Of a stretch of 64,000 nucleotides of DNA, positions 28,170 through 28,387 are shown in pieces (position 1 is the stretch's first letter; every line of letters begins with the position of its first letter). The notes beneath the pieces were generated by a model. That model was given only the letters and a program-made list of their open reading frames with translations, made no database searches and was not told where the DNA came from. The position numbers were made by a program, and so were the translations under genes. The stretch lies in NCBI RefSeq assembly GCF_054482525.1, contig NZ_CM137006.1. One strand, written 5' to 3'.

Positions 28170-28345
28170 AAAATTCCTTTTAAAATCATAACATAAAAGA
28201 ATGATTCACATTAACGGATCCGTTAACTACGAAAATAGGCAACTTATTCTTAAGGGGCAAGATTAATTTATGTTTTCCCGTCACTAACGACAAAATTTGC
28301 GAGGCTCTTTCCGAAAATAGGGTTGATCTTTGTCGTCACCGGATG

Positions 28346-28365
28346 TACTGTACATCCATACAGTA
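28346..28365. promoter_or_regulatory. LexA box (SOS operator) in the sulA promoter
   Basis: TACTGTACATCCATACAGTA matches CTGT-N8-ACAG and is the well-known strong sulA operator; about 25 bp upstream of the sulA ATG. Confidence 0.85.
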
Positions 28366-28387
28366 ACTCACAGGGGCTGGATTGATT

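Follow-up and report, generated by a model that had tools for sequence, protein, structure and literature searches.

The region between positions 28170 and 28387 is very probably the well-known divergent sxy–sulA control region of Escherichia coli, in which two inputs act independently: LexA on sulA and CRP-S/Sxy on sxy. Both sites proved identical in sequence to those of E. coli K-12 and conserved across genera. The regulatory behaviour that we attribute to them would be that described in the K-12 literature, and the core sxy promoter which CRP-S probably serves was deduced from sequence. The arrangement, both sites and their functions have already been published (the CRP-S autoregulatory site of sxy in 2015, as later papers cite it, and its dissection in 2019), and the region is ordinary for E. 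coli. What is added here are the exact coordinates of CRP-S in the window (the whole 64-kb stretch of DNA analysed), a cross-genus footprint, a conserved TTGCCC-17-TATTTT promoter candidate and an inconsistency over the sxy start site; beyond correct annotation, the significance is small.

The sxy–sulA locus and its conservation

The locus comprises the following features.

27540–28169, minus strand: sxy (tfoX) coding sequence, 209 aa (open reading frame list, RefSeq annotation of an identical genome, Pfam, identity to K-12)
28170–28387, unstranded: divergent intergenic control region, 218 bp (sequence and open reading frame list)
28175–28179, minus strand: Shine–Dalgarno sequence AAGGA of sxy (sequence)
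28388–28897, plus strand: sulA (sfiA) coding sequence, 169 aa, ATG at 28388 (open reading frame list, RefSeq annotation, Pfam, identity to K-12)
29254–30306, plus strand: ompA (annotated copy with the coordinates of the window)

The window is a part of the E. coli chromosome. Several complete E. coli genomes carry its segment 27400–29100 at 100% identity. Among 5426 complete genomes of this species, 5425 gave a match to the segment, which covered 80% or more of it in 5424. The annotated gene order in the matching genomes is yccS, sxy, sulA, and a full-length annotated copy (RefSeq, from a 100%-identical genome) has the same coordinates as the window for sxy, sulA and ompA. The sequence-only reading of this DNA had described sxy and sulA as transcribed divergently from a 218-bp region and had considered the arrangement as known. 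Open reading frames together with the RefSeq annotation place that region at 28170–28387, and the 100%-identical genomes identify it as the characterised E. coli sxy–sulA region.

Sxy is the coactivator needed by CRP at CRP-S sites, and SulA is a cell division inhibitor induced in the SOS response. Both protein assignments agreed with the domain content: the sxy product carries the two TfoX/Sxy domains (Pfam TfoX_N, E = 1.4e-25; TfoX_C, E = 3.3e-27) and the sulA product carries the SulA domain (PF03846, E = 6.3e-51), each protein being 100% identical to its K-12 counterpart. Between the two genes, the 218-bp region differs from that of K-12 MG1655 by three SNPs (28285, 28334 and 28340), all of them outside the motifs, and it is present at 95–100% identity in 5421 of the 5425 matching E. 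coli genomes.

A few observations concern the surroundings of the region. Four of the 5428 matching places of the sxy–sulA segment lie on plasmid-labelled records, which may represent mislabelled replicons or plasmid-borne chromosomal segments. The yccS (plus strand) and sxy (minus strand) genes are convergent, sharing 38 bp at their 3' ends (27540–27577), the same as in K-12. The ompA allele (29254–30306) has 1053 nt in comparison with 1041 nt in K-12, that is four codons more, and seems to be an ordinary allelic variant.

Searching species-representative genomes with Sxy gave 21 loci, 20 of them full-length, which came from Escherichia clades, E. albertii, ten Citrobacter, Intestinirhabdus, Lelliottia, and MAGs labelled Enterobacter and Raoultella (one). 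In all 20 full-length loci, sulA was divergent from sxy at a spacing of 216–218 bp, and the arms of the LexA box as well as both CRP-S half-sites were conserved, with a variable CRP-S spacer. The purine-rich block ahead of the sxy ATG was retained in all loci compared. The 15 loci from outside Escherichia had the following identities to the window.

Intergenic spacer overall: 0.76
LexA box: mean 0.95, arms invariant
sulA -35 hexamer: 1.00
sulA promoter spacer: 0.47
CRP-S half-sites, proximal and distal: 1.00 and 0.96
CRP-S 6-bp spacer: 0.54

A Sxy fragment 99% identical to that of E. coli was also encountered on a 276-bp low-coverage contig (L022) of a Bacillota assembly labelled Alkalicoccobacillus porphyridii; E. 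coli DNA contaminating that assembly is almost certainly its source.

The LexA operator and the sulA promoter

28346–28365, unstranded: LexA operator (SOS box) of sulA, TACTGTACATCCATACAGTA (motif, PWM, PMC3009722, conservation)
28323–28351, plus strand: putative sulA core promoter, -35 TTGATC at 28323–28328, 17-bp spacer, -10 TACTGT at 28346–28351, predicted start at about 28358 (sequence, sulA/sfiA literature)

The LexA operator of sulA has served as a textbook case since the 1980s, and the box recognised as such in the sequence-only reading turned out to be by far the top-scoring LexA site of the window. The LexA palindrome CTGT-N8-ACAG occurs a single time in the 64 kb (28348–28363), and the only exact match to the longer TACTGT-N8-ACAGTA is the sulA box TACTGTACATCCATACAGTA; by simple arithmetic, about 0.004 exact matches to the 12 palindromic bases are expected by chance per 64 kb. 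A PWM was made from 16 other published boxes (PMC3009722) with the sulA box left out. It scored TACTGTACATCCATACAGTA at 20.0 bits and the next-best site in the window at 11.8 bits; the 16 boxes themselves score 13.8–28.2, so that the sulA box falls inside the range of experimentally known LexA boxes. The identical 20-mer is listed as the LexA motif of sulA in PMC3009722, where sulA is UV-induced.

The left arm of the box, TACTGT, lies 17 bp past an invariant TTGATC and doubles as the putative sulA -10 hexamer. Given the sequence and the sulA/sfiA literature, TTGATC and TACTGT are presumably the hexamers of the sulA promoter. With this assignment, the operator overlaps both the putative -10 hexamer and the predicted start. 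The -35 hexamer with its flanks (AAAGATCAACC on the minus strand) was invariant across genera, whereas the 17-bp spacer of the promoter was only 0.47 identical. The -10 matches the consensus at just three of six positions. A built-in promoter and terminator scan of 28100–28460 detected nothing, which we ascribe to the weak consensus matches of both promoters in the region. GATC sites occur in or beside the intergenic spacer at 28325–28328 (inside the sulA -35 TTGATC), 28217–28220 and 28143–28146, and all of them were invariant in the aligned loci.

According to the mechanism known for sulA, a LexA dimer would bind the palindrome 28346–28365 and cover the -10 and the predicted start. Since the box lies over these elements, RNA polymerase would be excluded from the sulA promoter until RecA stimulates the self-cleavage of LexA in the SOS response. 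The K-12 sulA (sfiA) promoter shares the 20-bp box, the distance between the box and the ATG and the -35 hexamer, besides encoding an identical SulA. It differs at 28334 and 28340 in the 17-bp promoter spacer, where K-12 has T and the window has C, with no functional difference expected.

The CRP-S site of sxy

28295–28316, minus strand: CRP-S site, 22-mer with the 16-bp core at 28298–28313 (identity to the mutated K-12 site, conservation)
28298–28302 and 28309–28313: sxy-proximal half-site TGCGA and distal half-site TTCCG, separated by the spacer GGCTCT

A CRP-S site had been expected on the sxy promoter side without being located. It is present, and its bases are exactly those of the K-12 site that Søndberg et al. 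2019 mutated. The scan proposed for its detection, TGCGA-N6-TCGCA in 28170–28300, would have missed it twice over: at up to two mismatches the palindromic pattern has no match inside the spacer 28170–28387, which is a false negative, and the range covers only a minor part of the 22-mer 28295–28316. Nor is the sequence upstream of sxy devoid of CRP-like half-sites, the case in which the expectation was to be dropped. One perfect copy of TGCGA, a half-site with C6, lies in the 218-bp spacer at 28298–28302, although a single pentamer is insignificant on its own, about 0.4 copies being expected by chance in 218 bp of both strands.

The palindromic scan misses the site because the latter is asymmetric. 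In comparison with TGCGA-N6-TCGCA, it has three mismatches, in the second half-site, and thus is not of the Haemophilus influenzae type, but it matches the E. coli type TGCGA-N6-TTCCA at nine of ten positions. On the scale of the whole window, both patterns are statistically weak: the palindromic form had 35 matches at up to two mismatches versus 42 expected, and the E. coli-type form had 11 matches at up to one mismatch versus 5.7 expected. On the sxy strand, the distal half-site reads CGGAA, i.e., it has G6 and not T6, in agreement with the rule for Enterobacteriaceae that CRP-S half-sites without C6 have G6. The credibility of the site comes from its identity to the mutated K-12 site and from the phylogenetic footprint, and not from a motif score.

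The K-12 site has been characterised in detail. Søndberg et al. 2019 described a promoter-proximal conserved half-site TGCGA and a promoter-distal non-conserved half-site TTCCG in Psxy, and their primers DDsxy, PPsxy and PDsxy give the K-12 core as CGGAA-AGAGCC-TCGCA on the sxy strand, in the context CCCTATTTTCGGAAAGAGCCTCGCAAATTTTGTCG. The window carries this core and its flanks unchanged at 28313–28298. In K-12, replacement of either half-site abolished the Sxy-dependent control and reversing the site did not, so that both unlike half-sites are needed and the orientation is irrelevant (Søndberg et al. 2019). CRP AR1 was required and AR2 was not, which speaks for a Class I-like mechanism. As described in three papers citing Jaskólska & Gerdes 2015, the site drives positive autoregulation of sxy dependent on CRP, cAMP and Sxy; activation needing all three was shown in K-12 for the identical sequence. 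The reporter fragment of Søndberg et al. takes in no more of the LexA box than its last base, and therefore the operator is dispensable for Sxy-dependent activation.

By analogy with K-12, cAMP-CRP together with Sxy would bind the asymmetric CRP-S at 28298–28313 and activate sxy via CRP AR1 in a Class I-like manner, and Sxy acting at its own promoter would result in positive autoregulation. The C at position 6 and the degenerate distal half-site would make the site a weak one for CRP on its own. The K-12 Psxy site (Jaskólska & Gerdes 2015; Søndberg et al. 2019) has the same 22-mer, in the same orientation with TGCGA nearest to sxy and lying equally far from the sxy ATG. The only difference is one SNP (28285), placed 10 bp downstream of the 22-mer and beside the start reported in 2012.

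The CRP-S (CRE) sites TGCGA-N6-TCGCA of H. influenzae resemble the sxy site in the C6 of a half-site, in the dependence on Sxy and in the low affinity for CRP alone. They are palindromic, whereas the E. coli sxy site is asymmetric with its three mismatches in the second half-site; the palindrome is the Pasteurellaceae form of CRP-S and not that of E. coli. The tfoX promoters of Vibrio likewise place a competence regulator gene under direct cAMP-CRP control, but they have canonical CRP-N sites and thus lack Sxy-dependent autoregulation.

The conservation of well-kept half-sites around a variable spacer is the pattern to be expected of a dimer-binding site. The distal half-site TTCCG, called non-conserved in the literature, was almost invariant across genera, which fits the suggestion of Søndberg et al. 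that this half-site carries specific information. The -40 to -55 zone of the putative sulA promoter, which the half-site overlaps, may be partly responsible for the conservation.

In one of the 5425 matching genomes (E. coli NH-21, L023:3142–3909, corresponding to 28303–28310 of the window), an IS1 copy is inserted inside the 6-bp spacer of CRP-S with the target duplication GGCTCTTT, and separates the TGCGA and TTCCG half-sites. Going by the data of Søndberg et al., this insertion should abolish Sxy autoregulation in that strain.

The sxy promoter and the alternative readings

28232–28260, minus strand: candidate sxy core promoter, -35 TTGCCC at 28260–28255, 17-bp spacer, -10 TATTTT at 28237–28232, predicted start at about 28225–28223 (hexamer model, conservation, SELEX)
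28284, minus strand: sxy start according to Sinha & Redfield 2012, a G situated 115 bp upstream of the ATG (PMC3330819)

The accessible literature is inconsistent with regard to the sxy start, placing it 115 bp upstream of the ATG on the one hand and pointing to Class I genetics and a downstream promoter on the other. If it persists, this inconsistency bears on the contact between CRP-Sxy and RNA polymerase. With a simple sigma-70-like hexamer model, TTGCC(C/G)-17-TAT(T/G)TT ranked first or second in 22 of 22 sequences at the same aligned position, its hexamers TTGCCC and TATTTT being 0.96 and 0.98 conserved. The same TTGCCC-17-TATTTT is printed for sxy by Shimada et al. 2014 inside a SELEX peak of the RNA polymerase holoenzyme. 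A start about 7 bp past TATTTT (28225–28223) would centre CRP-S at -80.5 to -82.5, a Class I position. Further conserved blocks were found downstream of CRP-S: ATCTTGCC, TAAGTTGCCTATTTTC, TAACGGA and TATGATTT.

The start given in PMC3330819 (Sinha & Redfield 2012) was stated there with data not shown. The base at 28284 is C on the plus strand and hence G on the sxy strand, in agreement with that report, but with a start at this position the centre of CRP-S would fall at -21.5, a distance that Class I activation does not allow. No acceptable -35/-10 pair for 28284 was predicted in any of the 22 sequences. A canonical second CRP site upstream of the 2012 start was not found either, the sole TGTGA/TCACA pentamers in the spacer (28206 and 28368) having no partner half-site. 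Considering these data, we lean towards the conserved downstream promoter TTGCCC-17-TATTTT as that of sxy. The answer is presumably contained in Jaskólska & Gerdes 2015. Two other candidates were rejected. The Escherichia-only TTGTCG-17-TAAATT scored slightly higher in Escherichia but was not kept elsewhere, and it would put CRP-S at -47.5. The number in the primer name 'sxy253kan', at first sight a start coordinate, refers to the vector pOU253kan.

Both starts might be used: a basal promoter firing from 28284, whose spacer and -10 region overlap CRP-S, would be occluded by CRP-Sxy, which at the same time would activate the downstream TTGCCC-17-TATTTT, so that the site acted as a switch. Such a pair of promoters would reconcile the published -115 start with the AR1-dependent Class I genetics and the conserved downstream promoter. 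We consider it unlikely, as no acceptable -35/-10 pair was found for 28284 in the 22 sequences and the published start comes without data; most simply, either one of the two assignments is mistaken or they were made under different conditions.

The LexA and CRP-S inputs could also be coupled rather than independent. It seems quite improbable that CRP-Sxy bound at about -52.5 tunes sulA, and/or silences a basal sxy promoter upstream and at the same time fires the one downstream, a coupled switch which, if true, would link competence induction to division control. The general form of coupling, in which CRP-Sxy also modulates sulA and LexA influences sxy so that competence is linked to division arrest, we hold to be very improbable. 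The geometry of the region gives some grounds for it: CRP-S is centred about 52.5 bp upstream of the predicted sulA start, in the zone of the RNA polymerase alpha C-terminal domain or an UP element, and the 22-mer ends 6 bp from the sulA -35. However, CRP is not known to activate from -52.5. The spacer length of 216–218 bp and the order of the elements are fixed across at least five genera, but dense packing of two promoters is enough to account for fixed spacing. The distal half-site with its flank (ATTTTCGGAAA) is more conserved than a weak half-site would need, and overexpression of Sxy has been reported as toxic. On the other side, the Psxy reporter works without the LexA box, every candidate sxy start is over 60 bp downstream of that box, and PMC3009722 does not name sxy among UV-responsive genes. 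A report of Sxy-dependent sulA expression was not found in a literature search that stopped short of Sinha et al. 2009. The reading with two independent inputs is retained.

There is next to no probability that TGCGA-N6-TTCCG resembles a CRP-S site only by chance and regulates nothing in the strain of the window: the pattern scans of the window were at or near chance and TGCGA is expected about 0.4 times in 218 bp, but the 16-bp core and its flanks are base for base the K-12 site whose mutation alters Sxy-dependent expression, an identity that effectively refutes this reading, and the half-sites are invariant or nearly so across genera with a variable spacer between them.

Several other properties of the spacer were noted. 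A regulatory stem-loop was predicted by Sinha & Redfield 2012 (PMC3330819), and a structured or translationally controlled sxy leader was considered and rejected: the 145-nt leader folded no better than shuffled sequences (z = -0.01), and the consensus of 15 sequences had a covariation term of -0.4 kcal/mol with just one compensatory pair. No Rfam family matched, the search returning only two sub-threshold chance matches.

28211–28226, unstranded: perfect 16-bp palindrome TTAACGGATCCGTTAA with a central GATC (Dam), at or just past the predicted sxy start

The TAACGGA core of this palindrome is 0.99 conserved, and the core TAACGGATC is kept as far as Lelliottia. No factor is known to bind it. 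The palindrome could pair with the conserved GGATCT in codons 9–10 of sxy, for which the covariation was negligible.

The RcdA paper (genomic SELEX) reports RcdA binding in the sulA–sxy region, assigned to the spacer in one assay, together with a footprint in the sulA ORF and unaffected sulA mRNA. An exact RcdA box TTGTnnACA is absent from the spacer, which contains only the one-mismatch variant TTGTCGTCA at 28330–28338. The spacer is marked as H-NS-associated by Shimada 2014.

The sequence CGAAAATAGG (CCTATTTTCG on the sxy strand) occurs twice in the spacer, at 28230–28239 and 28312–28321, as a perfect 10-bp direct repeat whose copies are 82 bp apart. The first includes the TATTTT of the candidate sxy promoter, and the second adjoins the distal half-site of CRP-S. 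Each copy is retained in the other genera, and a repeat of this length appeared in 58 of 2000 shuffles of the spacer.
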